Under the pieces are notes generated by a model. That model saw only the letters and a program-made list of their open reading frames with translations. It made no database searches and had not been told where the DNA came from. Below are positions 13,805-63,356 of a stretch of 64,000 nt of DNA, one piece after another. The stretch is from the NCBI GenBank assembly GCA_019423565.1, contig JAHZBE010000002.1:18563-82562 (forward strand). Direction: 5' to 3'. How positions within the stretch are numbered: the stretch's first letter is position 1; each line of letters begins with the position of its first letter. Source of the DNA: a bacterium. GTDB lineage: Bacteria; Bacillota_I; Bacilli_A; RF39; UBA660. A program made the translations under genes and the position numbers.

Positions 13805-13860
13805 AAAGAGTCCTTTGAACTGTCTATCTTTATTGACAAGTTCATTTAGACTCTTTTTTT
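13805..13860. terminator. bidirectional intrinsic terminator between convergent genes
   Basis: Long hairpin aaagagtc...gaactgtc/gacaagttc...gactcttt followed by T-run on plus strand and A-run on the other side. Confidence 0.5.
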
Positions 13861-14101: not shown

Positions 14102-14172
14102 TAGATTACCACCTTCTAATCTAATATATGTTTTTTGCCCAAAAATGTGACAAAAGAAAAAAGTAATATAAA

Positions 14173-45339: not shown

Positions 45340-45918
45340 TTAGTTTTTAAAACCTAATCCATTAAAGAATTTAAGGTTCCCATCTTTACCAAAAGATGCA
45401 GTTACATTGCTGCTTCCATCTTCTGCTACCCAAACATATTTATTCCAAGAACTAACTTCAATAAGAGTTCCATCAACACCACCAACGGCTTTTTTAAATT
45501 CATCATAGCTAATTCCATCATTAATTCTTGCTTTTATGTCTGATAAGTTATCAAGTGTTACTTTTTTATTTTTTAATTCTTTTTTATCATATTCACTTTT
45601 TATAGATACTATTTTATCATTTGAAAATGAAACAGTAATTTTTTTATCATTACCAAAGTCATATTCATACTTATCAAGTGAAGTACTTTCAAGTTTAGTA
45701 GCTTCAAATCCTACTATACCATTTAATTCTTCTAATGTATTATCTAAAGACATCTTTGTTAAACATTCATAATATGAACATTTTGATTTTACAGTTTGTT
45801 CTGTACCACTTTTTACATTATCATTTTTTACATTTGTGTTTTCTTTTGTATTTGCACACCCTACAGTACAAATTAATACAAATAAACATGTTAACCCTAT
45901 TAAAATTTTATTTTTCAT
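45340..45918 (-). CDS. hypothetical lipoprotein
   Basis: Signal peptide with lipobox-like LICTVGC; 192 aa. Confidence 0.5.
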   Translation of the reverse strand: MKNKILIGLTCLFVLICTVGCANTKENTNVKNDNVKSGTEQTVKSKCSYYECLTKMSLDNTLEELNGIVGFEATKLESTSLDKYEYDFGNDKKITVSFSNDKIVSIKSEYDKKELKNKKVTLDNLSDIKARINDGISYDEFKKAVGGVDGTLIEVSSWNKYVWVAEDGSSNVTASFGKDGNLKFFNGLGFKN

Positions 45919-46092: not shown

Positions 46093-47835
46093 TTAATAAG
46101 AAAGATTACAAACTTTTTCTTTATTACTCATACACAAATTGTAATAATAACCTTGTTTTTTTATAAGTTCTTTATGTGTTCCAATTTCTACAATTTTTTT
46201 ATCTTCTATAAATACAATCAAATCAGCATTTTTAATAGTATTTAATCTATGTGCTATTACAAATGATATCTTATTCTCTAATATTTCCTTTGTAGCATTC
46301 ATTATATATTGTTCAAATTCCAAATCTAAATTTGATGTAACTTCATCAAGAATTACTATATCACCTTTTTTTAATATAGCTCTTGCAAAACTTAACAATT
46401 GTTTTTCACCATAAGATAATAAATCTGTTTCTGCAGTTATTATTGTATCGTATTTATTTTCAAATTGTTCTATTTTTTTATGGATACCAATTCTTTTACA
46501 AAGAGAAACAATATCTTGAAAAGTAACATTATCATTTCCATACATTAGATTTTCTTTTATAGACATGTTTAATATAACGGGTTCTTGAAAAACATATGAT
46601 ATATTTTTCCTAAGTTCACTAAGTTTATAATTTGTATAATCAATACCATTTATTAAGATTTTTCCATTCGTTAACTTATAGAATCTTGGTATTAAATTTA
46701 CAAAAGATGTTTTACCTGCACCGCTTTTTCCAACAATTGCAATTGTTTTAGGTTTATCTACTTTTAAATTAATATTATCCAATATTAAATTTTCTCCATC
46801 ATAACTTAATGACACATCTTTAAATTCTATTGAATCTATTTTGTTTAATTCTAATACTCCTTCATCAACTTCTTTTTCAATATTAACTATGTCTAATACA
46901 TTTAAAAATGCAATATACTTATTCAAAGCCCCATGCATATGATCCAAAACTCCATGCATATTACCATTAATATCATTTATATAATCCATCATTAAAATTA
47001 TTGTAGACCCACCACAAATTCCTATTAAAATTTTATTTCCACCAATCAACAATGTGATTATTGTAGAAAAAAACGATAATAAACTAAATAATGCAGTATG
47101 TAATCCTGAAATTTTACTTGTTTTAATAAAATCACTTTTTGATTTTTCTAATAATTTTTTTATATCATCTATATTTGTTTCCTCAAGTCTTAAAGTTTTT
47201 GTAGTTGAAAAACTATCAATATATTCATTAACCTTTTCTTGAAGATTAATTATAGTTTTTTGTAATTTTCTATATGTTTTCATGCTTTTATTATAAAAAG
47301 GTATTAACATTAAATATGATATTACAAATATAACTAAAACACTAAGAGCAATTTGCCAATCTAAAAAGAACATTATAATAAGTGTAACTATTATACTCTT
47401 TATTCTATATGCAAACAATCCTAAGAAATTCCATATGAATAATCGTGCAGATTCAAAACTTTGTGTAACAGTTAAACTAAATAATTTCCCTACCTGCATC
47501 TTATCAAGTACACTTATATCGCCATTCTGAATAGTACTAAAAATTTTGCTTTTTATTTGTTTATCATTATCAAAACATATAATACTTCTTTGCTTTTCTA
47601 AATATAAACTACCAAGAAAAATTCTAATCCATATGTATAAGATATATATAGAAGAAATTATAATTACCATTTTTACATTTTTATTTGGAATAAAATTGTC
47701 AATTGAGCTTGATAACACAAACTGATACACAAAAACAGGAGCAATTTGAAGCACTTCAAATATTGCTCTTTTAATAGTAGGTTTTTTATTTGTAGTGAAA
47801 TTAAGCATTTCTTTTAATTTTTGTTTATTAAACAT
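46093..47835 (-). CDS. ABC transporter ATP-binding/permease protein (exporter half-transporter)
   Basis: 6-TM domain plus NBD with Walker A GKSGAGKTS, signature LSYGEKQ, Walker B ILDE. Confidence 0.85.
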   Translation of the reverse strand: MFNKQKLKEMLNFTTNKKPTIKRAIFEVLQIAPVFVYQFVLSSSIDNFIPNKNVKMVIIISSIYILYIWIRIFLGSLYLEKQRSIICFDNDKQIKSKIFSTIQNGDISVLDKMQVGKLFSLTVTQSFESARLFIWNFLGLFAYRIKSIIVTLIIMFFLDWQIALSVLVIFVISYLMLIPFYNKSMKTYRKLQKTIINLQEKVNEYIDSFSTTKTLRLEETNIDDIKKLLEKSKSDFIKTSKISGLHTALFSLLSFFSTIITLLIGGNKILIGICGGSTIILMMDYINDINGNMHGVLDHMHGALNKYIAFLNVLDIVNIEKEVDEGVLELNKIDSIEFKDVSLSYDGENLILDNINLKVDKPKTIAIVGKSGAGKTSFVNLIPRFYKLTNGKILINGIDYTNYKLSELRKNISYVFQEPVILNMSIKENLMYGNDNVTFQDIVSLCKRIGIHKKIEQFENKYDTIITAETDLLSYGEKQLLSFARAILKKGDIVILDEVTSNLDLEFEQYIMNATKEILENKISFVIAHRLNTIKNADLIVFIEDKKIVEIGTHKELIKKQGYYYNLCMSNKEKVCNLSY

Positions 47836-47836
47836 A

Positions 47837-49606
47837 TTATTCTCCTATTTTATCTAAATTAATTTCGTATATTTTTCTATAATTTTCATTTTTTAGTAAT
47901 TCATCATGTGTTCCACATATCACTTTACCATTATTTATATAGATAATTTTTTCAAATTTTGGTGCCAATTCTATTTCATGTGAAATAAATATTTTACTAG
48001 AATCATCTTCTAATGTTAATAAATTTTCTAATATTTTTCGTTTATTTATTCTGTCTATTGCACTAAAAGAATCATCAAATATCATTATAGGTTTTGGTTT
48101 TGTATATGCTCTTACTAAAATTAATCGCTGTCTTTGTCCTTTTGATAAGGAAACCCCATTTTTACCTATTTGACTATCATATCCATCATTAAGTTTTTGA
48201 ACGTCTTTGTGGAATGAAAAAAAGTTTGATAATTCAATTATTTCTGGCATAGAAATACTTGGCATTAATATCTTTATATTCTCTGCAATTGTTCTTGAAA
48301 ATAAATAAGAATCTTGAAGTAAAAGGCACATATTTTCTCTAATAATTTTTTTATTTAAATCTTTTATCTCATAATTTCCAATTTTTATACTTCCATCATA
48401 TTCATAAAAACCAATTAAAGTTTTTAATAATATTGTTTTACCACTACCCGTACTACCAACAACCATAACCTTTTCACCTGGATTAATTACAAAATTTAGA
48501 TTACTCAATAAAATCTTTCCATTTATTTTTATATTAGCATTTTTAAATGTTATTGTAGTATCTCTAATTTCAATATTTTCATCACTTTTCTCATCTTCTA
48601 ATGTCAAATTTAATAGATTATTAAGTCTCTTGCAAGAAACAATACATAGATTAAAAACTTCTAATATTTCTGATAAATCAGTAAAAGATCTCGTTATTTT
48701 ATTTGCATAATTTATTGTTACATATATGCTTCCTATAGTTATAAAATTATTAACATACAAGATACTACTAATTATGAATATTACTGGAGTTTGAGTTTTT
48801 ACAACACTACTTGTTGATGCTTTATAAAAACTATCCAATACAATTTTTCTTTTATTCGCATCTAGATTATTATTATTTACTTTTTCAAATTTCTCTATTT
48901 CTTTTTCCTGTAAATTATTAATTTTCATAAATTTGATATTAGAATAATTATCATTTAATTTTGAATATAATTCTTTTTGTACCTTCATTTTATTTTCAAT
49001 TATTGGTTTTGATTTTATGTAATACCAAATAGACAATAAAATTATTATTAATATTGATACAAACATTACTAGCGATAGTCTTATATCTAAACTTGCTAAT
49101 TGGGCTATTGCAAATATAATTATTAAAGTTAAATCAAGTATATATGTAAGTTGTTTTTCTATAACATTGACTATATTGGCAACATCATCTGTTGAATTTT
49201 GAACTAATTCAGCAAGTGACTTTTTATAAAAATCTTGATATGTTAAATTTTGTATGTGATTAAATAATTTTAATTTTAATTCAAATTGAAATTCTTGAAT
49301 TATTTTATTTTTTGTAACATTTCTTACATATGTAAATAATATAATTACCCCTTTTATAAGTAAAACAAAAATACACATTATTGGTATAAATGATAATTTA
49401 CCATTAAATAAACTAATAAACAATTCTATAATATCATTATTTGTATTTTGTTTTAATAACACATCAATAAAATATTGTATAACAACAGGTATATATGTTA
49501 CTAAATAATTCAATGCAATACTCAACAAAAAAAACACTAATATTAATAACTTAGTATGTTTAAAACTTGATACAATAGCTTTCAATAACTTCATAAACTT
49601 CTCCAC
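47837..49606 (-). CDS. ABC transporter ATP-binding/permease protein (exporter half-transporter, partner)
   Basis: TMD plus NBD (GSTGSGKT, LSKGQRQR, IFDDSFSAID); 1-nt gap to partner gene. Confidence 0.85.
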   Translation of the reverse strand: MEKFMKLLKAIVSSFKHTKLLILVFFLLSIALNYLVTYIPVVIQYFIDVLLKQNTNNDIIELFISLFNGKLSFIPIMCIFVLLIKGVIILFTYVRNVTKNKIIQEFQFELKLKLFNHIQNLTYQDFYKKSLAELVQNSTDDVANIVNVIEKQLTYILDLTLIIIFAIAQLASLDIRLSLVMFVSILIIILLSIWYYIKSKPIIENKMKVQKELYSKLNDNYSNIKFMKINNLQEKEIEKFEKVNNNNLDANKRKIVLDSFYKASTSSVVKTQTPVIFIISSILYVNNFITIGSIYVTINYANKITRSFTDLSEILEVFNLCIVSCKRLNNLLNLTLEDEKSDENIEIRDTTITFKNANIKINGKILLSNLNFVINPGEKVMVVGSTGSGKTILLKTLIGFYEYDGSIKIGNYEIKDLNKKIIRENMCLLLQDSYLFSRTIAENIKILMPSISMPEIIELSNFFSFHKDVQKLNDGYDSQIGKNGVSLSKGQRQRLILVRAYTKPKPIMIFDDSFSAIDRINKRKILENLLTLEDDSSKIFISHEIELAPKFEKIIYINNGKVICGTHDELLKNENYRKIYEINLDKIGE

Positions 49607-49762: not shown

Positions 49763-49851
49763 AAATCGGACAAATTAATAATATCATATTTTTTTTATTT
49801 TATCAACTAATTTTGATACTCTTTTGCATATAATATATGGGAGGGTTTATT

Positions 49852-50280
49852 ATGGCTATTGTTGCATATAATACAAAAGAACTTGATTTACTTGCTAGAC
49901 TTATGAGAGCAGAAGCAACTGGTGAAGGTAATCTTGGAATGCTTATGGTTGGCAATGTTGGAATAAATAGAGTTATAGGAAACTGCTTAGATTTTAAAAA
50001 TATAACTAGTATTTATCAAATGGTATATCAAGATCCAGGAGGATTTTCTGGAACAGATAGTCCACTTTTTTATAGTTCATCTAGTACTGCTGAAAAAAAT
50101 CTTGCTAAAAGAGTAATAAATGGTGAATACTTTCATCCTGCGACTAATGCACTTTGGTTTTATGCACCAGGATCTGGTAATTCATGTAAACCAACATGGT
50201 TTAATCAAAAAAATAGTGGAAGATATAAAAATCATTGTTTTTATGTTCCTAAAAAAGGAGTTTGTAAAGACTTATACTAA
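49852..50280 (+). CDS. spore cortex-lytic enzyme family cell wall hydrolase (CwlJ/SleB-type Hydrolase_2 domain)
   Basis: Start at 49852 with GGGAGGG RBS; LLARLMRAEATGEG...MLMVGNVGINRV motif typical of SleB/CwlJ catalytic domain. Confidence 0.75.
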   Translation: MAIVAYNTKELDLLARLMRAEATGEGNLGMLMVGNVGINRVIGNCLDFKNITSIYQMVYQDPGGFSGTDSPLFYSSSSTAEKNLAKRVINGEYFHPATNALWFYAPGSGNSCKPTWFNQKNSGRYKNHCFYVPKKGVCKDLY

Positions 50281-50294
50281 AAATACCAATGCTT

Positions 50295-51515
50295 TTACAC
50301 ATTGGTATTCTTTTTTATTTGAAGTTCATCGCCAACTCTAAGTACATCTGATTTTAAGTTATTTAACTGTTTAATATCATTTATTGTTGTATTATAATCT
50401 CTAGCAAGTTTCCATAAACTATCCCCTCTTTTAACAGTATAAACTATAATACCATTACCTGTTTCAGTTCCAGTTGGAATAATAAGAACACTTCCTACAG
50501 TCAATATATCACTTGTTAAATTATTTTTGTTTTTAATATCATCTATACTAACATTAAATATTTTAGATATTGACCATAGTGTATCTCCATTTTTGACTAC
50601 ATAAGTATTTTCTTCATTAATTATATCATCTTCTGAAGGTGTTACTATAGTTGTAGAAGATGGTATATTTATAATTTGACCAATACTTAATAAATCACTA
50701 GTTAAATTATTAACTTTCATTAAATCATTAACATTAACTCCATATTGTCTTGCGATTGAATATAAACTATCTCCTCTTTTAACTACATATGATATATTTG
50801 TATCTTCTGCTTTATAATATTCCGGTACTCTTAAAGTTTGACCTACATATAAGATATTACTTTTTAAATTGTTTAATCTTTTTATTTCATTTACATTAGT
50901 ATTAAATTTTTTAGCAATATTCCATAAAGTATCTCCTTTTTGCACAGTATAAGTAATAGATGAACTACTTTCACCATATGGAATATTTTTATATTCAGCA
51001 ACTGCTTTTACAACTGCTTCAGCATATTTTTCCCAATTATTTTTTATTCTTTCTGCATCACCCTTATTATCAAGAAATCCATATTCAATAATTATTGGTT
51101 CTGTTACACCTGTATTCCTGTGGATAAAATAATAATCCTTACTATTATCACTTGGTAATCTTCTTTGATATGCTTTTCTTATAGATTGACCTTCTTTACT
51201 TAGATTTTCAAGTATTAATTTTGATAGTGTATCATTATTTCTAAGAGCGTATATAACTTCTGCTCCTGATGAGCCACCTGCATTTAAATGATTTGATATA
51301 ACAAGTACATCAGGTGAATTGCCATATGCGTTTAATATTCTGTTAACTCTTTCTGTTGGAGTTACTGTTTCATCAGTACTCCTAACAAGCGTAGAATTTG
51401 CACCTAATTCATTAAATCTTCTATTTAAATAATCAGCAAATTTTAAAGTATATTCCTTTTCAACAAGTCCATTTCCACTAGTTCCAGGATCACTTCCACC
51501 ATGGCGAGTACCCCT
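50295..51515 (-). pseudogene. Amidase_3 plus 3xLysM gene (paralog of 29816..31006) lacking its first ~7 codons and any start codon
   Basis: Frame is open from the TAA at 51516-51518 down to 50295 and encodes RGTRHGGSDPGTSGNGLVEKEYTL... (Amidase_3 starting at the conserved GG) then 3 LysM repeats. There is no Met, GTG or TTG in the 190-aa amidase part (first Met at 50945). The recombinase gene stop is 12 nt away. Confidence 0.6.
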
Positions 51516-51527
51516 TTAAACAAGGAA

Positions 51528-53171
51528 CTAATCTAATCGAATTAAATTAAATTCTATTTCAATATCTCTTGTGTTAGTTTCAGGATTTATTTCACCAATC
51601 AATACTTGTTCTATAAATTCATCAACAATCTCTTTTGTTAATTTATCAATATGTTTATATTTTTCGAAAACTTTTTTACTTGTTTGAACTTTTTCTTCAT
51701 TTGTTTTAATATTTAAAAGCTCATCATTTATTACTTTGATTCTTTTCTTATATTCTTCTATTTCTTTACTAAATTTCTCTCTTAACATCATAAATTCATC
51801 TTGTGAAATAATTCCTTCTAATTTATCTTCATATATTGACTTATAATAATCATTTTTTTTATTTATTTTTGTATTCAATTCTTCTTTTTCTTGTTCGAAG
51901 ATTTCTTTTTTTGAAATAGAACTAGAGTTTAAAGATTTTTTTTGAATTGTATATAATCTATCTAACTCATCAATATTATAATATATATCTAACTGTTTGT
52001 TAATCTCATCAACTATAATTTTTTCTAGCACATCACATCTTATTGAAGCATTATTATTACACTTATGATTAGCAAGCCTTACACCCTTACATTTTAAATA
52101 TGGTGTTTTACCCTCTGATGTTTTATATAAATTTCTAGTGAATACTTGATGACATTCTTTACAATATACTTTTCTGCTTAACATATAAACTTTGCCCGTT
52201 CTAGTTACTCTAGTCCTCGTCTTAAATTTACATTGAACAGCATTCCAAGTATCAACATCAATAATTGGTTCATGAGTGCCATAACTATATGTCCATTCAT
52301 CTTTAGGTTTATTTATTTGCTTATGATTTTTATAACTAACATATGTCTTTTTACCTTGAACTAAGTTTCCCATATAAACTTCATTTCTTAATATTCCATA
52401 AATAGTATCTTGACACCATTGTGTTCTCATTCCATATTTAGCACTTCTACAAACATATTTACTTCCATTTTCTTTTTTATAATTACTTGGTGTTAATATT
52501 CCTCTATCATTTAAATTCTTTGCAATTTTATAATATCCCATACCACTTTTATACATTGAAAAAATTTCTTTTACAATCTCAGCAGCAACTGGATCAATTA
52601 ATAGTTTATTTTTATTATTAGGATCTTTTTTATACCCATATGGAGCAAACGAACCTAAAAACAAGCCATCTTCTCGTTTATTTTGTAATGATCTTCTAAC
52701 ATTATCAGATAAATCTTCTAAATACCATTCATTAACTAAGCCATTAATTTGTCTTGACTTTTTATTACCTGCAACATCTGTATCTGCATTATCAACAATG
52801 CTTACAAATCTAACTCCCCATTCAATAAATTTATTATGAATATATCTTTCGATAACTTCCATATCTCTTGAAAATCTTGATTGAGTTTTACATAATACAA
52901 TATCCACTTCTCCTTTTTCACATTCTTCAATCATTTTGTTAAAACCTGGTCTGTTATTATCAGTACCAGAATAATCATCATCACTATATATGGCAACTAC
53001 TTCCCAGCCTTGTTCAAGTGCATATTTTAGTAACATACTCTTTTGATTTGCAATTGATTCACTATCATCATTTTTATTTTTCTTATATCTATCTTCGTCA
53101 GATAATCTAACATATATTATTACTCTCTTCGGTCCAATTCTTTTAACTCTTGTTATTGACATGAGAAGCAC
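51528..53171 (-). CDS. large serine recombinase (resolvase/invertase catalytic domain plus recombinase and zinc-ribbon/coiled-coil C-terminal domains)
   Basis: 547 aa; N-terminal VIIYVRLSDED (catalytic Ser in R-x-S context), resolvase-like fold, Cys-rich zinc-ribbon segment (CKECHQ...CKGVRLANHKC) and long C-terminal coiled coil. Confidence 0.85.
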   Translation of the reverse strand: MLLMSITRVKRIGPKRVIIYVRLSDEDRYKKNKNDDSESIANQKSMLLKYALEQGWEVVAIYSDDDYSGTDNNRPGFNKMIEECEKGEVDIVLCKTQSRFSRDMEVIERYIHNKFIEWGVRFVSIVDNADTDVAGNKKSRQINGLVNEWYLEDLSDNVRRSLQNKREDGLFLGSFAPYGYKKDPNNKNKLLIDPVAAEIVKEIFSMYKSGMGYYKIAKNLNDRGILTPSNYKKENGSKYVCRSAKYGMRTQWCQDTIYGILRNEVYMGNLVQGKKTYVSYKNHKQINKPKDEWTYSYGTHEPIIDVDTWNAVQCKFKTRTRVTRTGKVYMLSRKVYCKECHQVFTRNLYKTSEGKTPYLKCKGVRLANHKCNNNASIRCDVLEKIIVDEINKQLDIYYNIDELDRLYTIQKKSLNSSSISKKEIFEQEKEELNTKINKKNDYYKSIYEDKLEGIISQDEFMMLREKFSKEIEEYKKRIKVINDELLNIKTNEEKVQTSKKVFEKYKHIDKLTKEIVDEFIEQVLIGEINPETNTRDIEIEFNLIRLD

Positions 53172-53395
53172 CTCCTTTCAGCGATAATTCTATAGTATTT
53201 TTATAATTTAATTAAATGTATAAATATTAAATTTGCAGCCTTGACTTTTTAGCTTGTAGATTCTTTTTCCTGTAAAATAATAATTCTTAATAATTTCTCA
53301 TTAAAAATTTTTATCAATTCTTCTTTTGTATCATTATTAGTTTTTATAATTGACTTAACATTATATTTAATTTCTTCTTTCAAAACAATCACCTT

Positions 53396-53644
53396 TTAAA
53401 ATATATGCTTATAATCCTTAAATATTTTTTTCTCATCATAATTAGACATATTATTTATTAATTCAATTCCGTATTTAAAGGTCGGTTTTTTATCAAATGT
53501 CTTTTTTAAGTCAATATTATTATCTACACTATCATTTAAAACTTTTGCTACTTTAATCAAAGCAAGTTTCATACTCTTTTCACTTACCATCATTTCTGTT
53601 TCATAAATCATTTTTATTTTTACATTATATGTTTTTGTTCTCAT
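53396..53644 (-). CDS. hypothetical protein (translationally coupled downstream of the MazF-like gene)
   Basis: 82 aa ORF whose start overlaps the mazF-like stop; no recognised domain. Confidence 0.35.
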   Translation of the reverse strand: MRTKTYNVKIKMIYETEMMVSEKSMKLALIKVAKVLNDSVDNNIDLKKTFDKKPTFKYGIELINNMSNYDEKKIFKDYKHIF

Positions 53645-53647
53645 ATA

Positions 53648-54007
53648 TTAATTCTCCTTATCATTTATTCCAAAAGTATTTAAAAGTGCTTTGTTTACTG
53701 CCATCTGTTCCTTATAACTAATACTTGCAAGATATTGTTCTAACCTTTCTTTACTAATCGATCTGATATGCTCTATTAATACTACTGAATCATATTTTAA
53801 ATATCTTCTAGATTTAATAGAAACATGACTACACATATAAAACTTTTTATTAATAAGTTTTGTTATCGGTGCAACTATAACTGTTGGACAATTTCTTGTA
53901 CCCTTATTACTTTGAATAATCAAAACAGGTCTTCTACCACCTTGTTCATTACCAATAATCGGATCAAGGGTTGCATAATATATTTCTCCTCTTAACACTT
54001 GTTTCAT
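53648..54007 (-). CDS. MazF/PemK/EndoA-family endoribonuclease toxin
   Basis: Start at ATG 54007 with GGAGG RBS; RGEIYYATLDPIIGNEQGGRRPVLIIQSN...TVIVAPIT...LIEHIRSISKERL closely parallels B. subtilis EndoA (NdoA). Confidence 0.8.
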   Translation of the reverse strand: MKQVLRGEIYYATLDPIIGNEQGGRRPVLIIQSNKGTRNCPTVIVAPITKLINKKFYMCSHVSIKSRRYLKYDSVVLIEHIRSISKERLEQYLASISYKEQMAVNKALLNTFGINDKEN

Positions 54008-54074
54008 TAAATACCTCCATTTTAGGCAAAATAAAAAGACCTTTAAGGTCTTACTAAAAAATATCTTTGCTATT

Positions 54075-54611
54075 TTATTTACAAATAATGTAGTCGCTAT
54101 AATCAAAATTTAAAGGTAAAGATTCATCATAATCAAAATTCTCATTTGCCATTACCTCCATGTGAAATGTTAATACTATTCTTATAATACAACTATTAAC
54201 AAATGGTATAACACCACATCTAGATCTTTGCATAACTTTAGACAGTTGATATTCTGTTTTCTCATTTATAAACTTTTCAGTAAAGCATTTCTTTTCATCT
54301 GCATTCATAATCTTCATCATAGCAGTTATTTTTTCATTCATAAAACGATATTCAGCCACTTCATCTATTTTCCTATCAATACTATCCATTTGATGATTCT
54401 CTCTAGGTAAAGAGCATGAATATATAGGTTCATATCTTGAAGTTATTCTTATTGTAGGTTCATTAGGATATTTATTCTTTAACCTCACAAAATGGTGCAT
54501 TATCTTTAATGCAATTTGAGTACACATTTCTAAATTATACTCACTTATAAATACTTTACTTAAAATATCATTATCTAGATATTCATAATTTTTGTTATCT
54601 TCATCATTCAT
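54075..54611 (-). CDS. hypothetical regulator, ArpU/sigma-region-4-like (weak)
   Basis: 178 aa; C-terminal region has an HTH-like segment (TEYQLSKVMQRSRCGV); assignment weak. Confidence 0.3.
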   Translation of the reverse strand: MNDEDNKNYEYLDNDILSKVFISEYNLEMCTQIALKIMHHFVRLKNKYPNEPTIRITSRYEPIYSCSLPRENHQMDSIDRKIDEVAEYRFMNEKITAMMKIMNADEKKCFTEKFINEKTEYQLSKVMQRSRCGVIPFVNSCIIRIVLTFHMEVMANENFDYDESLPLNFDYSDYIICK

Positions 54612-54687
54612 TTTGATCTTATCCCACTATAGCAAAGAAAAAGGAAAATCATTTTTTAGGACAAGAAACCCCATTTTTGATTTTCCT

Positions 54688-55245
54688 TTAAAAATTAATT
54701 GAAAATATACTATATGGAGCACATACACATTTTCTAAAAAATCCTTTACCATTTAAAGAATATGAAGTACCTAATTTTTTCTTTAATTCTTCTTTATCAT
54801 TAAGTAATAAGATGTCATCATATAATTTTGATTCAAATTTTGGAATTTCCAAATTTTCTCTATATTTATCAGGATATTTTATATTTAATTCATCAAATAT
54901 TTCTAAAACGTTTCTTACAGATTCTATTGCTATCTTTTTCCAATCTACACTTTCTTTTTTATTTATGAAAAATTCATTAACAGCTTCTATATTATTAAAA
55001 TCATAAGCAAGTAACTCTATTTTTTGACCATAAAAAGATGTAGTTATTTCCATACCTACTTTTATGTCACCACTAAAATTATTTCTAACATTTTCATCCA
55101 TTAATTCTATATGTGCACTGCAGTTATCATGATCCGTAATGGAGATAATTGATAAACCTTTTTCTTCTGCCATTCTTAATAAAGTACTTACATCATATAC
55201 TCCATCAGAATATAACGAATGCATATGTAAATCTATTTTTTTCAT
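54688..55245 (-). CDS. PHP domain metal-dependent phosphoesterase
   Basis: N-terminal IDLHMHSLYSDG...ISITDHD PHP motifs I and II; 185 aa. Confidence 0.6.
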   Translation of the reverse strand: MKKIDLHMHSLYSDGVYDVSTLLRMAEEKGLSIISITDHDNCSAHIELMDENVRNNFSGDIKVGMEITTSFYGQKIELLAYDFNNIEAVNEFFINKKESVDWKKIAIESVRNVLEIFDELNIKYPDKYRENLEIPKFESKLYDDILLLNDKEELKKKLGTSYSLNGKGFFRKCVCAPYSIFSINF

Positions 55246-55438
55246 ATATATCCCTTCTTTAAATCATATATTCTATCACAAAGATTAAAAAAAGCAAAAT
55301 TATTTTTTTGCTCTTCAATTTTATATTTTCTATTTAAATATAAAAAATATCTTTTTCTAGTTTTAACCTTAAGATTTTGATTTTTAACTTTGATTGATTA
55401 TACACATATTATTTTTTAATATATAAGTCTCTATTTTA

Positions 55439-57142
55439 CTATTTTTGCAATAATTTGTAATATTTATTATTTTTAATAAGTTCCTTATGTTTACCATTTC
55501 CGACAATTTTACCATGATCAATAACCAGTATATTATCTGCCATTTTCATTAATTTAGGTTTATGTGTAATCATAATAACTGTATGATCTTTCTTTAGATT
55601 TTTTAACACATTCATAACATGCTTTGCAGTATTAGGATCTAAAGAAGCAGTTACTTCATCAAATAATAATATTTCAGATTTTGACAATAAAGTTCTTGCT
55701 AATGCTATAAGTTGCTTTTGTCCACCTGATATATCTACTGCATCTTCTTTTAAAATAGTATTATATCCTTTAGGTAAAGACATTATGAAATTATGTATTC
55801 CTACTCTTTTACATGCTTCTACTTGATGTTCATGATTAGAATCAATTAAACTTAAATTTTCCTTTATACTCATATTAAATATAAATGGTTTTTGAGTTGT
55901 TATTGAAACATTAGAAGAATAAATCTTATTTGAATATTCATATATATTAATTCCATCTATATAAATATTTCCTTTATCTAATTTATATAATCTAAGTAAT
56001 AATCTAAATATTGTTGATTTACCTGATCCGGATTTTCCAACTATTGCAGTTAAGGAATTTGCATGTATATCAAAACTAATATTATTTAATATTAATTTAT
56101 TTTCGTATGTAAATGATACATTTTCAAAACTAACATTACCAAATATATCATCTGTTATATTATTTCCAAATGATAACATATTCTTATTATTGTAATACAT
56201 TACATTATACAATCTATCAATACGAACGCTACTAGCTGACATTTTGTTTATTCTTTTAAAAAATTCTGTATTTTCTGTTTCAATTCTATCAATATAACCA
56301 ACAACCAAAATAAGCATTCCAACATTCATATTTCCTTTTAATATTTCAAAAATTACAATAACATATGAAGTAATTTTTGCAACTATAATAAGAATTGGCA
56401 AGATGCATTCGTTTATATCCCAATATTTTCTTTTTAAAAAATATTGTTTTCTCCACTCTTTTTTATATAAATTTAAATAATCATTAAGTTTGTCTGACAT
56501 ACTAAAAGATTTAATTTCTTTATTACCATCTAATATTTGTGTAAACATTTCAACTATTTTATCTTGCTGTTTTCTTTGACCATTTAAGTAATAATCTCTC
56601 TTCTTTTGACCCTTATCTAATAAGTACAAATATAGAATATTAAAAAGTAGTACAATAATTCCAATATAAATATTGTAATTTAGTAAAATAATTAAAGAAA
56701 TTATAAGACTTATAAAATGTGTTACTGCATCGACCATTCTATCATCAAACATACAAACTTCAAAAGTATCATTCGCAACCGTATTAATCAAATATGATTT
56801 TGAAACTTTCTTTGTAAAATTCTCATCATATTTAACAACACTTTCAATAACATTTTCTTGTAATTTTGTATACACATAATTTGAATTATTTCTGTATGCA
56901 ACATAGTTCCAATGATATACAATATTATAAATTAAATAATTTATCGATAAATAAAATACATTTAAAAAAGCATTATTAAAATCTTGAATTGTAGCATACT
57001 CTACAATCTTTGAAGCAAATATTGGTATACCTAAAACCGTTGTGCTTCTTAAAAAGGCTGAGAAAAAAAGTGCAAATAATAGTTTTTTATCATTAGCATG
57101 TAACTTTAAATATTTTTTATAAATTTTAAAATATCTAATCAT
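55439..57142 (-). CDS. ABC transporter ATP-binding/permease protein (exporter)
   Basis: TMD plus NBD (GKSGSGKST, ISGGQKQ, LLFDEVTASLD); close paralog of the adjacent gene. Confidence 0.85.
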   Translation of the reverse strand: MIRYFKIYKKYLKLHANDKKLLFALFFSAFLRSTTVLGIPIFASKIVEYATIQDFNNAFLNVFYLSINYLIYNIVYHWNYVAYRNNSNYVYTKLQENVIESVVKYDENFTKKVSKSYLINTVANDTFEVCMFDDRMVDAVTHFISLIISLIILLNYNIYIGIIVLLFNILYLYLLDKGQKKRDYYLNGQRKQQDKIVEMFTQILDGNKEIKSFSMSDKLNDYLNLYKKEWRKQYFLKRKYWDINECILPILIIVAKITSYVIVIFEILKGNMNVGMLILVVGYIDRIETENTEFFKRINKMSASSVRIDRLYNVMYYNNKNMLSFGNNITDDIFGNVSFENVSFTYENKLILNNISFDIHANSLTAIVGKSGSGKSTIFRLLLRLYKLDKGNIYIDGINIYEYSNKIYSSNVSITTQKPFIFNMSIKENLSLIDSNHEHQVEACKRVGIHNFIMSLPKGYNTILKEDAVDISGGQKQLIALARTLLSKSEILLFDEVTASLDPNTAKHVMNVLKNLKKDHTVIMITHKPKLMKMADNILVIDHGKIVGNGKHKELIKNNKYYKLLQK

Positions 57143-58880
57143 TATTAAACACTCCTAACTTACTTGCACTTTTTCTAGTTTGCAAAGCCCTATAATACTC
57201 ATTACTTTCTAATAATTGTTTATGTGTACCATCTCCAACTATTTTTCCTTCATTTAAAACTATAATTCTATCTGCTTTTTTCATTAATTCTGGTTTATGA
57301 GTAATCATAATTATTGTATGATCTTTTTTTAAATCTTTTAAAATAGTATCTATATTAGATGAAGTATCTGGATCTAAAGATGCTGTAATTTCATCAAATA
57401 ATAATATTTCAGATTTTGATAATAATGTTCTTGCTAAACTTATAAGTTGTTTCTGACCACCAGATATATTAGTCGCATTTTCTCGTAATATTGTGTTATA
57501 CCCTTTTGATAATGAAACTATAAAATCATGTATTCCAACTCTTTTACAAGCCTCTATTTGATTATTTATATTTGTATCAACAAAATCTAAGTTTTTTCTT
57601 ATACTCATATTAAATATAAATGGTTTTTGGTTTACAACACTTACGTTTGATTTATATATATCTTTTGAGTAGTCATATATATTAACACCATCAATTAGAA
57701 TTTCTCCAGAACTAGGTTTATATAATCTAAGTAAAAGATTAATTATTGATGTTTTACCAGTACCACTTTGTCCTACAATTGCAGTTAAAGAATTAGAATT
57801 TATTTTAAAACTTATACCTTTTATAATTTCTTTCTTGTTATATCCAAATCTTACATTATTAAATTCTATAATTCCATCTATATTATCATTGTATATATTT
57901 CCATAACTTATCAAATTATTTGATTTATAATTTAAAATACTATTTACCCTATCCACACATATACTTACTTCTCTTATAGTTGATGTTGAATCAATTAATT
58001 GATCTAAATAAGAAGTAATTGTTTCAAAATAGCCAACAATTAAAACTAAAACATCAACTGTTATTTTTTGTTTTGTCATTAAAAATAATAATATTAAATA
58101 CAAAGATATTTTGAAAAAATAAGTTATAAATCTAACATCATTATCTCTTATAGTTAAATAATTTCTTTTTTTAATATAACTATCACTATATTTATTTTTT
58201 ATTTCATTAAGTTTCAACTTTAATTTTGGTAACATATTAAATGTTTTAATTTCTTGTAATCCTGATAAAATTTGTGAAAATAAACTACTATATCTATCAA
58301 TCGCATGTTTTTGTTTTCTTAAATAAATTGATGATTTTCTATCAACATAATTTTTAATTTCTATATGTAAAATGGAGTAGATTAAAAATATTACAAAAAC
58401 CAATTTATCATATCTAGCAACTATTATACATACAATAATTACTTGTATAATAGTTGTAAATAATTCAGAAATTTGATTACACATATCTCCTATATCTATT
58501 ACATCTGAATTTATTGAATTTAATAGTTTACCTTTACCTATATTTTTAGTAAAATTATCATCTACTTGTACTAATTTATTTAATAATTTCGTTTGTAAAT
58601 TGTTATAACAATAATTCATATTTTTACCATATACTTTTAAATTAATAAAATAAAATAATTTATAAAAGATGTATGAAATTGTTAATAACCCCAAATTTAT
58701 AAAAGTCATTTTAGAATCACTTAATGTTGCATATTTTATAATTTTTGATGCAAACAAAGTATTTAAAATCAAAAATCCTTTATAACAAAAAGCAGTAAAT
58801 ATCATTTCAAATAAATATCTTGCTTTAGTTTGTGAAAGTTTTAAATATTCTTTTATAAATTTAATATATTCCTTTATCAT
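57135..58880 (-). CDS. ABC transporter ATP-binding/permease protein (exporter), tandem paralog
   Basis: TMD plus NBD (GQSGTGKTS, ISGGQKQ, LLFDEITASLD); 8-nt overlap with partner. Confidence 0.85.
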   Translation of the reverse strand: MIKEYIKFIKEYLKLSQTKARYLFEMIFTAFCYKGFLILNTLFASKIIKYATLSDSKMTFINLGLLTISYIFYKLFYFINLKVYGKNMNYCYNNLQTKLLNKLVQVDDNFTKNIGKGKLLNSINSDVIDIGDMCNQISELFTTIIQVIIVCIIVARYDKLVFVIFLIYSILHIEIKNYVDRKSSIYLRKQKHAIDRYSSLFSQILSGLQEIKTFNMLPKLKLKLNEIKNKYSDSYIKKRNYLTIRDNDVRFITYFFKISLYLILLFLMTKQKITVDVLVLIVGYFETITSYLDQLIDSTSTIREVSICVDRVNSILNYKSNNLISYGNIYNDNIDGIIEFNNVRFGYNKKEIIKGISFKINSNSLTAIVGQSGTGKTSIINLLLRLYKPSSGEILIDGVNIYDYSKDIYKSNVSVVNQKPFIFNMSIRKNLDFVDTNINNQIEACKRVGIHDFIVSLSKGYNTILRENATNISGGQKQLISLARTLLSKSEILLFDEITASLDPDTSSNIDTILKDLKKDHTIIMITHKPELMKKADRIIVLNEGKIVGDGTHKQLLESNEYYRALQTRKSASKLGVFNND

Positions 58881-59037
58881 TTACTTAACCCCTATACATA
58901 TAATTACTACATTTGATTTTTATAATTACATTCTTTCGTTATTATTAATATTAATTATAACATAAAATAATAAAAGAAAAAACCTAACTTAGTTTTTTCT
59001 TTTATTCACCTATAGAAAATAAATCTATTTTAAAGAT

Positions 59038-59469
59038 TTATTTTTCATAATATATATCTATATCAACAGTACCATCAATTCCATCTACTTTACCGATTTC
59101 TGTTAATTGCCAGAATTTATAATTACCTTCATAACTTGTTTTATCTTCTACTTTTGAGGTTTCTGTTGAATTTGTTTTATTACTTGATGATCTTTCTTTG
59201 CTTTTTTCAGTTTCACTTGAACTATTTGTAGGTTCTTTTTCTTGTTCTTTGGATAAATCTGACTTTTCTTCCATTTTTTCATCATTCTTTGTTTTTTCAA
59301 CAGATTTGTTAACTTCTTCATTCTCCTCAAATGTAGGTAATTCACTTGTAAAAGCATTTCCAATACCGATAATTGCACATAAAACTGTTACTGCAATAAA
59401 AATTTTATAATTTTTTTCATCATACAAAGTTCCTTTCTTGCCTACACTATACCACATTTTTAATAACAA
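59038..59469 (-). CDS. hypothetical N-terminally anchored, S/E/K-rich exported protein
   Basis: 143 aa; N-terminal TM/signal anchor then low-complexity acidic region. Confidence 0.4.
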   Translation of the reverse strand: MLLKMWYSVGKKGTLYDEKNYKIFIAVTVLCAIIGIGNAFTSELPTFEENEEVNKSVEKTKNDEKMEEKSDLSKEQEKEPTNSSSETEKSKERSSSNKTNSTETSKVEDKTSYEGNYKFWQLTEIGKVDGIDGTVDIDIYYEK

Positions 59470-59599
59470 TTAAAAGTGTGCAATAATTTTATTTCTAGAT
59501 TATTTATTTATACTACTATTAATTCTTTCAGTTAGTTAATAATAGTTAGTATATTTAGGGGAGGTTGTAGGAAGGGATTTTATAGAATAAATACTCCCA

Positions 59600-60553
59600 T
59601 TATCTTTCCATTTGTTTTTTGCGTTGATGATTGTTATAAAATTCAACTGCTTTGACTACATAATCTTCTCGACCTTTATCATCTAAATTTCGTGGGAGTA
59701 AATTTCGTAATCTATCTGCATTAAATTTATACTTTTCTTTTTGATTAGGTTTCTCTTGTTCCATCAAACTATCCATTGTATCTTGATTAAGTTCTTTTTT
59801 TCTACTTAATTCTTTCAATTGGATTGCTTGAGATAGGGATGGTGTACAATCAGAATATTCCATACAATCTAAAAGCATATTTTGTTCATCTTTTGTTAAA
59901 TAAGATATTTCAACAGCAGGTCTAAAAGCAATTCGTTCACTATCTACCATATCTAATATTTTAGGTATTAGTTCGGTTAGTCTTATATATCTAAAAACTG
60001 TTGCTCTACTATCATCAAATTCTTTTCCAAGTTTTTCTGCACTATCTAACTTTGTATCCATTGGCGACAAAGTTAAATCATTTCTTTTTCCTTGGCTATT
60101 TAATGCTTCAAGTTTAAGTTTATATGCAAATGCCTTCTCACTTGGTAGAATATGTTCCCTTTGCATATTACTATCAACCATAATTATAGTTGCTTCATCA
60201 TCTGTAAGTTCTCTAATAATACAAGGTATTGAATCTTTATTTGCTAGTTCACTTGCTTTCTTTCTTCTATGTCCTGAAATCATTTCATACTTACCATCTT
60301 GTTTTGGTCTAACTAAAACTGGAACTAATACTCCATATTCTTCAATACTCTTTGACATTTCTCTCATTTCATCATCTACTATAACTTTAAACGGATGATT
60401 AGGAAAATCTGCTATATCACTTATTTTTAAATTTTCAACATGCTTTTTACTCCTTAAATCTCTTTCTTCTTGCATAGTAAAAAACTCATCTCTCGTAATC
60501 TTTGGTAGTTGCATTTTTTTCTTTTGTTCTTCCATTTTCCACTTCTCTTGCAA
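59600..60553 (-). CDS. parB: ParB/Spo0J-like partition protein (ParB N-terminal nuclease-like domain)
   Basis: GVLVPVLVRPKQDGKYEMISGHRRKKA ParB box; HTH region follows; annotated start overlaps parA by about 68 nt, true start may be an internal Met (e.g. 60475). Confidence 0.75.
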   Translation of the reverse strand: MQEKWKMEEQKKKMQLPKITRDEFFTMQEERDLRSKKHVENLKISDIADFPNHPFKVIVDDEMREMSKSIEEYGVLVPVLVRPKQDGKYEMISGHRRKKASELANKDSIPCIIRELTDDEATIIMVDSNMQREHILPSEKAFAYKLKLEALNSQGKRNDLTLSPMDTKLDSAEKLGKEFDDSRATVFRYIRLTELIPKILDMVDSERIAFRPAVEISYLTKDEQNMLLDCMEYSDCTPSLSQAIQLKELSRKKELNQDTMDSLMEQEKPNQKEKYKFNADRLRNLLPRNLDDKGREDYVVKAVEFYNNHQRKKQMER

Positions 60554-61316
60554 ATGATGAATATGCTTCGGCTACTTTAATATTTTTATCATAACTAAAA
60601 ATACTCTTACCTTGCGAAGTTGATTCTGCCGTTTTAACTGCTATTGGTATTTGTGTATCAAATATCTTAACAATACTCCCATAACTTTCTTTTATTTCTT
60701 GTTTAACTTCTCTTGATAGATTAGTCCTATTATCAACTAATGTTATCAGTACTCCACCTATCTCTAATTTATGATTTAAATGCTTTTTAACATTAGATAT
60801 GGTACTTAATAAGTGTCCCATATTCTTTGCTGCTAAATATTGTGCTTGAACAGGAATAATAACTTTATCTGCACTTGTTAATGCATTAACTGTTATCATT
60901 CCAAGTGATGGCTGACAATCAAGAATTATATAATCATAATCTTTCTTTAAATTGTTTATACAACTTTTCATTATTTGTTCTCTGTTCATCGCATTTACCA
61001 ATTTCATTTCCATTGTTGAAAAATCTAAATTAGATGGTATTAAGTCAACATTCTCTTTATGGTGTAATATAGCATCTTTGCTATTTATTGAAATGTCATT
61101 TATTTCATGTTCCATTAAATCTGACATTGTTAATGAAAATTCATCTTGTTGATACCAACCCATGCATGTCGTTAAGTCTGCTTGTGGGTCAACATCTATT
61201 AACAAAACCTTTTTACCCATTTTAGATAGTGCTACACCTAAACTAAAAGTTGTGGTTGTTTTACCAACTCCACCCTTTTGATTTGCAACTGCTATTACTG
61301 TGTAATCATTCATCAT
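60486..61316 (-). CDS. parA: ParA/Soj-family partition ATPase
   Basis: Start at ATG 61316 with AGGAGG RBS; deviant Walker A AVANQKGGVGKTTT, DCQPSLG motif. Confidence 0.85.
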   Translation of the reverse strand: MMNDYTVIAVANQKGGVGKTTTTFSLGVALSKMGKKVLLIDVDPQADLTTCMGWYQQDEFSLTMSDLMEHEINDISINSKDAILHHKENVDLIPSNLDFSTMEMKLVNAMNREQIMKSCINNLKKDYDYIILDCQPSLGMITVNALTSADKVIIPVQAQYLAAKNMGHLLSTISNVKKHLNHKLEIGGVLITLVDNRTNLSREVKQEIKESYGSIVKIFDTQIPIAVKTAESTSQGKSIFSYDKNIKVAEAYSSFAREVENGRTKEKNATTKDYER

Positions 61317-61651
61317 TTTTTCCTCCTTTCTAATCTGCCATGCTATCTCTACATGACAAAGTAAACACAAAAAAAAGAACTTTTTCTTTAAAAGTCCTTA
61401 TTTTATATACCTTGTTATCAGGTATCATTGGTGTCCTGCATCTACAACAATCTTCACATTATTATTCATAAAATCTCTCCTCAAATTATTTTATGATAAA
61501 TACCCAAATGTGTTATTGTTTATTTTACTTTAAATATAAAATTTTTTAGGTAGATAAATTATTACAATAATATATAATGTTAACATATTTAATTACTTTT
61601 AATAAATTTCCTTCAGTTTTCTAACTCATTAATTATCATAAATAAGTTAAC

Positions 61652-63355
61652 TTATTTAACTTTACTATCCTCTGTTAAAAGTTTGAAATAACTACCTTTC
61701 TTATTAATTAATTCTTTATGGGTTCCTTGCTCAACAATTTTACCCTTATCAAGATATAAAATTTGAGAACATTCTTTAATTGTAGATAATCTATGTGCAA
61801 TTATAAATGAAATTTTATTTTTAGTTATTTCATCTATAGCATTTCTAATTAACATTTCAGATTTATAACTTAACGATGCTGTTGCTTCATCCAAAATTAT
61901 TATTTCGGGATCTTCTACCATTACTCTAGCAAAATTTAATAATTGCTTTTCTCCTGTTGATAACAAATCAGTATCAGAAGTAATAAATGTATCATATCCA
62001 TTTTCTAGATTTATTATTTTGTCATGTATTTTCAGTTTCTTACAAATATTAATTATTTTTTCTCTACTTACATCATTATTAACATAATTTATGTTATCTA
62101 ATATTGTTCCATCAAAAATAACAACATTTTGCATTATGTAACCTATTTTAGATCTTAAACTTTCTAAACTATAGTTTTTATAATTCTTTTCATTAATTAG
62201 AATCTCTCCACTACTTAAATCATAAAACCTACATATTAAATTTACTAGACTTGTTTTACCACAACCAGTTTTTCCTATTAATGCAATCTTGTCTCCTTTA
62301 TTAGCTTCAATATTAATTTTTGTTAGAATCTTATTTTTATTGTCATAACTAAAGTCAACATTATTAAACTTTATTTTTTTTATAGCATCTATTTCTTCTC
62401 CTATTTTAATATTTTCTTCTTCTCTGTTTAATAAATCCATTATTTTGTTATAGGATATTCTACCCAAATTTCTAATCTGAAATCCTTCTATAACCCATTT
62501 AGCATATGTTTCTGGGCTTGAAATATATCTTACTAAAACTGTAAGTGCCCCATAAGAAATTAAACCATTTACTACTCCAATACTACCATAGCATACATTA
62601 AATACAATAATAAATGAAATAATAAATTCATATAAATATGTATAAGTTCTAATATTTTTTTCTAATTTATTTGTAACATCATTATATTCTTTAATTAATT
62701 CAGACAATTCTTTCATTCTTTGGCTTTCAATTAATAAAGTCTTTATAGTTGAAAATCCATATATTTGATCATTAGACCAATTCAATATTTTAGCATTAAT
62801 TTTTCTTTTCAATTTTGTATATTCAATAGATTTTTTATTAAATACATATGTAATTATAAAACCTAAAATATAAATAAAAAGTGCCACAATCATTATCGGA
62901 ACATTTAAATACATTAATATAAAAATTGTTCCTAAAAGTCTTACAATACCACCACAGTAAGAGCGTACTACTCCATTACTATAGAATCTTGCCATTTCTT
63001 TTGTATCATTTAATATATTTTCCAAAACTTCTCCTGTTTTAATTTGATCAAGTTCACTCTCTTTTAAATCTTGGATTTTAAAATATATTTTTTCTCTATA
63101 ATCTGCTTCCAATTCCTTTATAAAAGATTCACTATTTATGTCTTCAAAAAAAGTAGTAATCGCCCTGAAAATATTTACACAAAAATATATAATAGATAAT
63201 ATTATTATTAGTTTTATATTTTTACTTGGAATTGCATATTCAACCATTACAATAGTAAAACTTATAAAAATAACCACCATTATACTAGTTAGGAACCATC
63301 CAATAGCAGTATTTCTTGCTTGCTTTTTGTAATTATTATAAATACTTTTTAACAT
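61652..63355 (-). CDS. ABC transporter ATP-binding/permease protein (exporter)
   Basis: TMD plus NBD (GKTGCGKTS, LSTGEKQ, IILDEATASL). Confidence 0.85.
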   Translation of the reverse strand: MLKSIYNNYKKQARNTAIGWFLTSIMVVIFISFTIVMVEYAIPSKNIKLIIILSIIYFCVNIFRAITTFFEDINSESFIKELEADYREKIYFKIQDLKESELDQIKTGEVLENILNDTKEMARFYSNGVVRSYCGGIVRLLGTIFILMYLNVPIMIVALFIYILGFIITYVFNKKSIEYTKLKRKINAKILNWSNDQIYGFSTIKTLLIESQRMKELSELIKEYNDVTNKLEKNIRTYTYLYEFIISFIIVFNVCYGSIGVVNGLISYGALTVLVRYISSPETYAKWVIEGFQIRNLGRISYNKIMDLLNREEENIKIGEEIDAIKKIKFNNVDFSYDNKNKILTKINIEANKGDKIALIGKTGCGKTSLVNLICRFYDLSSGEILINEKNYKNYSLESLRSKIGYIMQNVVIFDGTILDNINYVNNDVSREKIINICKKLKIHDKIINLENGYDTFITSDTDLLSTGEKQLLNFARVMVEDPEIIILDEATASLSYKSEMLIRNAIDEITKNKISFIIAHRLSTIKECSQILYLDKGKIVEQGTHKELINKKGSYFKLLTEDSKVK

Positions 63356-63356
63356 A

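Follow-up and report, generated by a model that had tools for sequence, protein, structure and literature searches.

The 64,000-nt stretch of DNA analysed here (the window; contig JAHZBE010000002.1, from a bacterium of the RF39 lineage UBA660) very probably contains a TndX/TnpX-type integrative element, 9.93 kb long, inserted in a chromosomal gene that encodes an Amidase_3 domain followed by four LysM repeats. The insertion target is a motif-coding sequence, and recombination between the attachment (att) sites at the two ends of the element would restore the gene. The original prediction, made from the sequence alone, had placed an element with a large serine recombinase inside this amidase gene, and the gene for the enzyme at the element's edge beside the crossover. 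Both halves of the gene, the CA crossover cores and an exact target site (attB) now substantiate that proposal.

The split amidase gene and the element junctions

The 3′ part of the amidase gene (50295..51501, minus strand) begins with the last base of the His-13 codon and continues with GGSDPG..., what remains of the Amidase_3 domain and, according to Pfam, four LysM repeats, where three had been counted before. The recombinase gene ends at a TAG (51530-51528) that is followed, in the same frame, by the 12 bases TTC CTT GTT TAA (TAA at 51518-51516), exactly the spacing first described. From 51515 the minus-strand frame opens as RGTRHGGSDPGTSGNG... and runs to a stop at 50295. Its earliest ATG, GTG or TTG is the GTG at 50945, which upholds the earlier reading that about 190 amidase codons lack a start, and the amidase domain is therefore untranslatable as arranged.

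The corresponding 5′ part lies at 61432..61469 on the same strand and matches at every base the beginning of the intact allele of a related locus (L001). It reads MNNNVKIVVDAGH from an ATG at 61469, encodes MNNNVKIVVDAG plus the CA of the His-13 codon, and turned up as MNNNVKIVVDAGHQ followed by a stop, at 61469 on the minus strand, when all six frames were searched for [IVL]x[IVL]D[PA]G. As now arranged, its frame adds Q and then meets a TGA. A ribosome-binding site, GGAGAG (61480-61475), is positioned 8 nt upstream of the ATG. What the 3′ part lacks is thus 12 codons and the first two bases of the His-13 codon, more than the seven or so codons originally estimated. The 5′ exon had been expected beyond position 64000, but the junction is at 61433-61432 and the whole element is in the window.

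When MNNNVKIVVDAG-H is placed in front of the 3′ frame, the result is MNNNVKIVVDAGHGGSDPGTSGNG..., a protein that matches positions 1-173 of the 174 in the Amidase_3 profile and carries the four LysM repeats (Pfam). The rebuilt protein is approximately 98% identical over its full length to 414-residue proteins of other assemblies, one cluster of which has 852 members; agreement of this order greatly exceeds what chance would give. The 3′ part has 98.7% DNA identity with the intact allele and contains no stop or frameshift, and no difference separates the 5′ fragment and promoter from those of the intact allele.

The integrated element occupies 51502..61431 (minus strand; 9,930 bp with one copy of the core counted). 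Homology with intact alleles breaks exactly at the attL crossover core, a CA at 61432..61433, and a second copy of the CA at 51502..51503 forms the attR core, both on the minus strand. The attL site reads GCAGGA-CA-CCAATGATACC (core 61433-61432), attR reads GGGGTACTCGC-CA-TGGTGGAAG (core 51503-51502), and the intact allele in L001 reads GTAGATGCAGGACATGGTGGAAGTGATCC. Removal of the element in silico produces an attB (GATGCAGGACATGGTGGAAG) that agrees with the L001 allele at 62 of 62 positions, an exact fit for the 5′ fragment that the original prediction had suggested looking for. Related strains without the element, which it had also proposed as a comparison, are represented by L001, L003 and L005, and L002 is a further close relative with an empty target site. 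L005, a metagenome-assembled genome (MAG) in which the amidase is 91% identical, is collinear with window positions 51503..50272 and 61431..63995 and breaks at the core. The rebuilt attP (the joined element ends) has perfect 7-bp inverted repeats, CCTTGTT and AACAAGG, at -22..-16 of both arms, and is symmetric at 15 of 30 positions, against 8 of 30 for attB. Precise insertion with a restorable attB is the mark that a large serine recombinase leaves when it integrates an element.

Public assemblies contain the identical recombinase protein in 286 indexed blocks, and the layout was the same in all 24 independent contigs that we read, which excludes an assembly artefact. Base composition gives no mark of the element boundaries. 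We also considered whether the region is a known plasmid and rejected this, as megablast of window positions 44000-64000 against plasmids returned only a 35-bp chance match.

Amidase_3 plus LysM without a signal peptide is also a common layout of phage endolysins, and in phage genomes the integrase gene commonly adjoins the lysis genes across attP, so the locus might be read as a prophage remnant in which an endolysin gene and a phage integrase gene were joined by deletion. This is extremely improbable and, for practical purposes, refuted by the empty site and by the matching 5′ half, which has its own promoter and lies 9.9 kb away. The element has no phage structural, packaging or lysis genes (Pfam and PHROGs), IMG/VR holds only one relative of the recombinase, at 39% identity, and the amidase gene is in chromosomal synteny with a Hydrolase_2 gene in most related loci.

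In the mechanism that we propose for the integrative element, the recombinase would have exchanged strands at the CA within the codon of the first zinc-binding histidine (D-A-G-H-G-G), a residue that corresponds to a zinc ligand in Amidase_3 structures. A PDB sequence search gave LysM-domain structures only (E below 1e-10) and was no help in placing the catalytic residues. The insertion parts the promoter, the ribosome-binding site and 12 2/3 codons from the other 401 codons, leaving no translatable catalytic domain while the element is in place. Recombination of attL with attR by the same enzyme would then take the element out precisely and leave the gene whole. TnpX and TndX carry out both integration and excision without other element-encoded factors (PMC2475636), and TndX-type enzymes are bidirectional; this element would probably still excise. 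The open 3′ frames, the identity of the 5′ fragment and promoter with the intact allele and the 98.7% identity of the 3′ part argue against simple decay; alternatively, the preserved reading frames could reflect recent insertions. With the att sites and the recombinase fully defined, the reaction is directly testable in vitro.

The window also holds the paralogous Amidase_3-4xLysM frame (29816..31006, minus strand) that had been described as intact. The frame is present as stated, but three of its four expected catalytic residues are gone (H13K, H84M and E152N), and the paralog is for this reason unlikely to be an enzymatic replacement for the split amidase. The degenerate form also occurs in another species (L007 17303..17845; H84M or Q, E152N or K). 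This conservation suggests a non-catalytic protein, perhaps with a wall-binding or regulatory function.

Recombinase family and target motif

The large serine recombinase is encoded at 51528..53162 (minus strand; 544 residues, or 547 if counted from 53171). Its Resolvase (92.5 bits), Recombinase (94.2 bits) and Zn_ribbon_recom zinc ribbon (37.2 bits) matches all exceed the Pfam cut-offs, the serine motif YVRLS is present, and residues 489-544 match DUF4368 (27.5 bits, cut-off 25). The protein has a PHROG integrase match of 368 bits, and from residue 12 to residue 543 it can be aligned with the annotated TndX of Tn5397 (tndX on Enterococcus plasmids) at 31.7% identity (E 1e-64). DUF4368 marks a multi-targeting clade of large serine recombinases that includes the TndX-like transposases (PMC10083194).

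A scan for the left end of the element recovered five contigs, of which two are the same as the window and three have the end joined to the corresponding His codon of other Amidase_3 genes. In these the target sequence breaks off after MSDYRETKKVVVDAGH, after MDKSLVGIVIDPGH and, in a CwlD-like gene with an N-terminal hydrophobic segment, after ...LLGKVIILDAGH (...GKVIILDAGH). Four different Amidase_3 genes are thus hit, always at the same His codon, and no target outside Amidase_3 was seen in the close family. Relatives with 83, 70, 57, 56 and 54% identity (L047, L049, L050, L009 and L004, respectively) end 20-100 nt before ...HGG.D.GA, with the junction CA/TGG. The target is the coding sequence of a conserved motif (D-x-G-H-G-G) and not one particular gene, and the element is consequently able to enter several paralogous genes. 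This provides a clear example from nature of a large serine recombinase that finds its target through the coding sequence of a conserved protein motif.

The closest known systems are Tn5397 (TndX) and Tn4451/Tn4453 (TnpX) of Clostridia, with which the element shares the recombinase architecture, including the C-terminal DUF4368 and the end-to-end alignment with TndX, as well as a recombinase gene at the element end, a 2-bp core and the use of more than one target. It differs from Tn5397 and Tn4451 in having a defined motif as its target, where theirs are sites resembling the element joint, and in carrying ABC (ATP-binding cassette) exporters and a toxin in place of antibiotic resistance genes. 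It also has neither a Mob gene (TnpZ in Tn4451) nor conjugation genes (Tn916-like in Tn5397).

Several observations weigh against assignment to this type of element. The crossover core is CA, whereas Tn4451 and Tn5397 have GA, a feature that is characteristic but not clearly defining. No relaxase, secretion, type IV secretion or replication genes were recognised among the element genes by Pfam. A recombinase relative of 54% identity in a Defluviitaleaceae MAG (L052) is not beside an amidase gene, which shows that the target preference has limits. Finally, exact searches for the attP joint GGGTACTCGCCACCAATGATAC, and hence for the excised circle, had no match in metagenome_contigs and IMG/VR, a search of low power because the element end itself is present in only five contigs of that metagenome collection, and one that we do not take as a sign that excision fails to occur.

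The serine-recombinase integrative and mobilizable elements of Firmicutes, such as those in rumA of streptococci, offer a further parallel in their in-gene sites, very short direct repeats and lack of a transfer apparatus of their own (PMC5704250); they differ from the present element, in which no relaxase was recognised. In the survey of Durrant et al. 2022, as here, divergent recombinases converge on one conserved coding site and a multi-target DUF4368 clade uses non-trivial motifs, but amidase targets are absent from its main text (PMC10083194) and the two clades described below sit beside both zinc-ligand histidines. Gene splitting by large serine recombinase elements and the convergence of diverse recombinases on one site are therefore known already. 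The new aspects are the amidase target, the use of a motif-coding sequence common to paralogs and the presence of two recombinase clades beside both zinc-ligand histidines. In the open-access papers searched, we came across no amidase gene described as a target of integration.

A second insertion site and a possible link to sporulation

In other species representatives the orthologous amidase gene is split after SNHLNAGG, beside the second zinc-ligand histidine (site 2; the His-13 position is site 1). The recombinases of the site-2 clade, located 0.15-2 kb upstream of the 3′ part, are approximately 31% identical to that of the window and 36-79% identical to one another. The 5′ halves are found on separate contigs (L026 and L027). 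In L027 the 5′ half is followed by genes for a phosphoesterase, ParA and ParB (58% and 52% identical to those of the window), an HTH_36 protein, a TED-SpaA adhesin and a sortase, and the recombinase end in L007 carries helicase/PLD and AAA genes, indicating that the site-2 occupant is a larger element. The two sites resemble each other, site 1 reading ATGCAGGA-CAT-GGTGGAAG (window 61440..61425) and site 2 ATGCAGGA-GGTGGGGAAGG (L027 10255..10275), despite recombinase clades that are only about 31% identical.

Among 23 species-representative genomes the orthologue is intact in 10, split at site 1 in two and split at site 2 in 10, and in one (L017) the recombinase directly precedes the LysM part, giving an interrupted orthologue in 13 of the 23. 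All interrupted copies in which the 3′ part can be read to its end are open, with 310-410 codons including LysM repeats (46-99% protein identity); L017 has a 221-codon LysM frame only. At this last locus (L017 1192..3419) a recombinase 32% identical to that of the window ends right before the first LysM repeat and the catalytic domain is absent, an arrangement that represents either a third insertion site or a deletion.

In L047 the frame past the site-1 junction reads ASHGGTDPG...ISNHINAGGGDS and then breaks into unrelated sequence. The middle piece (HGGTDPG...NHINAGGGDS; L047 4651..4923) lies between a site-1 element, with a recombinase 83% identical to that of the window, and unrelated DNA encoding AAA_15/AAA_21 and DUF3892 proteins; the downstream 3′ part falls outside the locus examined. 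From these sequences the L047 amidase gene appears to be interrupted twice.

Recombinase identity does not track amidase identity: L018 and L019 have amidases that are 98% identical and recombinases that are 50% identical, and between L007 and L018 the recombinases are 72% and the amidases 46% identical. We conclude that horizontal transfer has brought elements to these sites repeatedly. Vertical co-inheritance of recombinase and amidase was rejected for want of co-divergence.

The nearest named records to the host are Clostridium sp. CAG:433 and uncultured gut MAGs labelled 'Bacilli' or 'Tenericutes', and its G+C (guanine plus cytosine) content is approximately 24%. The window encodes SpoIVA (TIGR02836; 671 bits, cut-off 460; 11710..13188, minus strand), YunB (146 bits, cut-off 112; 22593..23348, minus strand) and an 80-residue SpoVIF homologue (PF14069; 73 bits, cut-off 27; 13859..14101, minus strand), and the organism thus carries core sporulation genes. 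The spoIVA gene has the box CATAATTTA 43 nt upstream, and the SpoVIF gene is preceded by ACATTTTTGGGCAAAAAACATATATTA, with the promoter at about 14148..14120.

A putative sigma-K-type promoter precedes the amidase gene at 61487..61513 (minus strand), in which AC (61513-61512) and CATAAAATA (61495-61487) are separated by 16 nt; this AC-16-CATAAAATA element sits 26 nt before the amidase ATG. A CATAnnnTA box 20-30 nt before the ATG is shared by 15 of 16 amidase upstream regions, including those of orthologues down to 34% identity and of two other targets of the element. Within 70 nt upstream of window genes it is rare (3 of 59: spoIVA, the SleB/CwlJ-type hydrolase and a kinase-like gene at 374..1147). 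The one other occurrence in the window of a full AC-16/17-CATAnnnTA with ribosome-binding site and ATG is before the SpoVIF homologue, and the promoters of this gene and of the amidase share ACAnnTTTGGG. The amidase has no signal peptide and combines an N-terminal catalytic domain with C-terminal wall-binding repeats, a layout like that of CwlC, in which wall-binding repeats likewise follow an N-terminal catalytic domain; it does not qualify as a CwlD equivalog (70.8 bits, against 221.6). The sigma-E and sigma-K promoters of C. difficile have a common -10 (CATATAAT) and are distinguished at -35 by ATA in the case of sigma-E and by AC in that of sigma-K, and two sigma-K-dependent amidases have been proposed to act in mother-cell lysis (PMC3789822), a role that cwlC and cwlH fill in B. 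subtilis (PMC517825). On these sequence features, the split gene would be that of a late mother-cell amidase.

One of the genes with upstream CATAnnnTA boxes, that at 374..1147, is the first of three tandem paralogous genes (374..1147, 1149..1916 and 2155..2712, minus strand). It alone has a family match, a weak ABC1 kinase-like one just under the cut-off, and the three may encode spore-coat kinase-like proteins.

Skin-like excision of the element during sporulation would be plausible. In a developmental switch of this kind, of which skin (sigK), SPbeta (spsM), gin (gerE) and yin (yabG) are examples, the element would be excised in the mother cell only and retained in the forespore, and the amidase would be a late mother-cell gene, acting for example in mother-cell lysis and spore release. 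This proposal extends the reading of an integrative element in an amidase gene and does not conflict with it, and we put it forward tentatively, as a possibility about which we are doubtful. It accords with the SpoIVA, YunB and SpoVIF genes of the host, with the AC-16 promoter and its box (common before amidases, rare elsewhere in the window and matched in full before the SpoVIF homologue), with the sigma-K-dependent and mother-cell precedents in C. difficile and B. subtilis, with the CwlC-like layout without a signal peptide and with the interruption of the gene in 13 of 23 species with open 3′ parts wherever these can be read to the end. A motif search, however, found no CATAnnnTA box of the sigma-E/K type before the recombinase gene or the two small open reading frames (of 45 and 82 codons) near it, and the cargo is typical of a mobile element. 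TndX-type enzymes have been reported to need no directionality factor (PMC2475636, PMC5704250). The uncoupled divergence seen in L018 and L019 points to repeated horizontal colonisation and not to an inherited, host-adapted element, and occupied and empty alleles coexist at approximately 98% identity.

Horizontal colonisation and mobile-element cargo would equally be expected if the conserved sequence were simply a landing pad, with a dispensable amidase lost in carriers and no meaningful restoration. Many mobilizable elements with serine recombinases use conserved sequences in this way, and it is common for large serine recombinases of diverse kinds to share a single conserved in-gene site (PMC10083194). 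We consider such plain insertional inactivation rather improbable. It does not readily explain why no stop or frameshift is found in any interrupted 3′ part read to its end, over 46-99% protein identity, or why the 5′ fragment and promoter match the intact allele, and irreversible loss of a useful gene each time is hard to square with its interruption in more than half of the species. The catalytically degenerate paralog, moreover, is unlikely to compensate.

A broader and speculative proposal, which we consider less likely than not, is that in this uncultured lineage of spore-forming gut Bacilli late mother-cell amidase genes, together with CwlD-like genes, serve as a safe harbour for the two serine-recombinase clades beside both zinc-ligand His codons, with excision in the terminally differentiated mother cell rebuilding a spore-releasing enzyme. 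If true, a skin-like developmental rearrangement would act on a lytic enzyme and not on a regulator, and L047-type genomes would need two successive excisions. If excision is tied to sporulation, a common organism of the human gut would have its spore release, and through it its transmission, under the control of these elements. The few sporulation-associated genes so far found split by recombinase elements are sigK, spsM, spoVFB, spoVR, gerE and yabG; to these a peptidoglycan amidase with a sigma-K-type promoter would add a new kind of target, in a gut lineage known only from metagenomes.

Like skin, SPbeta, vfbin (spoVFB), vrin (spoVR), gin and yin, the element has an endospore-former host, a large serine recombinase gene beside the junction, a precise insertion within coding sequence and a target that looks mother-cell specific, the last of these being our reading of the promoter and layout here. 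As with sigK, one gene is hit at differing positions across species, and gin is likewise a small, non-phage-like element (PMC5595907). The present case differs from the skin-type elements in its peptidoglycan amidase target, its TndX-like recombinase and the occupation of further Amidase_3 genes by the same element, and in that no sporulation-controlled directionality factor was identified here.

Other gene-splitting elements with large serine recombinases include the comK phages and the fdxN element, whose XisF is a large serine recombinase. The heterocyst elements (fdxN/XisF, nifD and hupL) split genes of a terminally differentiated cell that are rejoined by site-specific recombination, as would apply here if the amidase is a mother-cell gene, and the L047 gene with its two apparent interruptions adds to the likeness. 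The window's recombinase differs from XisF in that its NCBIfam XisF match is far under the cut-off (105 against 375 bits), and phylum and cell type also differ.

Gene content of the element and neighbouring DNA

All genes of the element are on the minus strand. Its left-end module consists of a 276-residue ParA-type ATPase (60486..61316; Pfam AAA_31, 196 bits, and CbiA) and a ParB_N/HTH_ParB protein (59600..60553; Pfam ParB_N, 69.6 bits; PHROG ParB-like, 167 bits), beyond which lies a gene for a small Ser/Glu/Lys-rich protein with an N-terminal hydrophobic segment (59038..59469). In the sister elements L038 and L041 the ParA-ParB module has DNA 99% identical to that of the window; the homology stops inside the small gene, at approximately 59134, and past this point the DNA diverges and other cargo is carried. 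The PHROG matches on the element comprise the ParB-like and integrase families together with weak PHP-domain/DNA-polymerase-type and unknown-function matches.

The cargo includes two ABC exporter genes (57135..58880 and 55439..57142), each with ABC_membrane and ABC_tran domains (Pfam), that are 25-35% identical to chromosomal ABC pairs flanking on either side; similar ABC pairs are thus found on both sides of the amidase locus and within the element. These genes are followed by one for a 185-residue PHP-domain protein (54688..55245; Pfam PHP, 39.8 bits) and one for a 178-residue protein without a family match (54075..54611), the C-terminal half of which resembles, when translations are compared, the product of an 82-codon open reading frame of the related element in L047.

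A PemK/MazF-like toxin is encoded at 53648..54007 (Pfam PemK_toxin, 93.2 bits), and an 82-codon open reading frame directly downstream (53396..53644) has a close homologue in the same place in L047. No recognisable antitoxin gene precedes the toxin gene, and the 82-codon frame stands behind it both in the window (53396..54007) and in L047 (2155..2767), which suggests an unusual toxin-antitoxin order or an orphan toxin.

Immediately upstream of the recombinase gene is an open reading frame of approximately 45 codons (53249..53392) that has no Pfam or PHROG match and is conserved in position and motif across the family: YNV...L(I/F)NxKLL(K/R)(I/V)I was found in every recombinase family member examined. 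We regard it as a candidate accessory or directionality factor.

Outside the element, the amidase gene converges with a gene for a small Hydrolase_2 (SleB/CwlJ-type) cell-wall hydrolase (49837..50280, plus strand; Pfam 63 bits), which by synteny is its conserved partner in most related loci. The pair of ABC exporter genes beside the hydrolase gene (46093..49606, minus strand) is absent in Clostridium sp. CAG:433 (L003 11263..12761), where a lipoprotein gene (window 45340..45918) comes directly after the hydrolase gene. The DNA past the Hydrolase_2 gene varies even among strains with an identical element (L032 and L033, beyond 13311). One variant carries genes for an N6_N4 methylase, a TED-SpaA adhesin and a sortase, a module that in L001 (12251..21245) runs on into a TrbL gene, and the other carries two DNA_methylase genes and a McrB-like gene. 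This region looks like a second variable hotspot next to the amidase locus. In L015, a 4-kb contig with the amidase split at site 2, a homologue of ParA 68% identical to that of the element lies just past the Hydrolase_2 gene (3803..4123).

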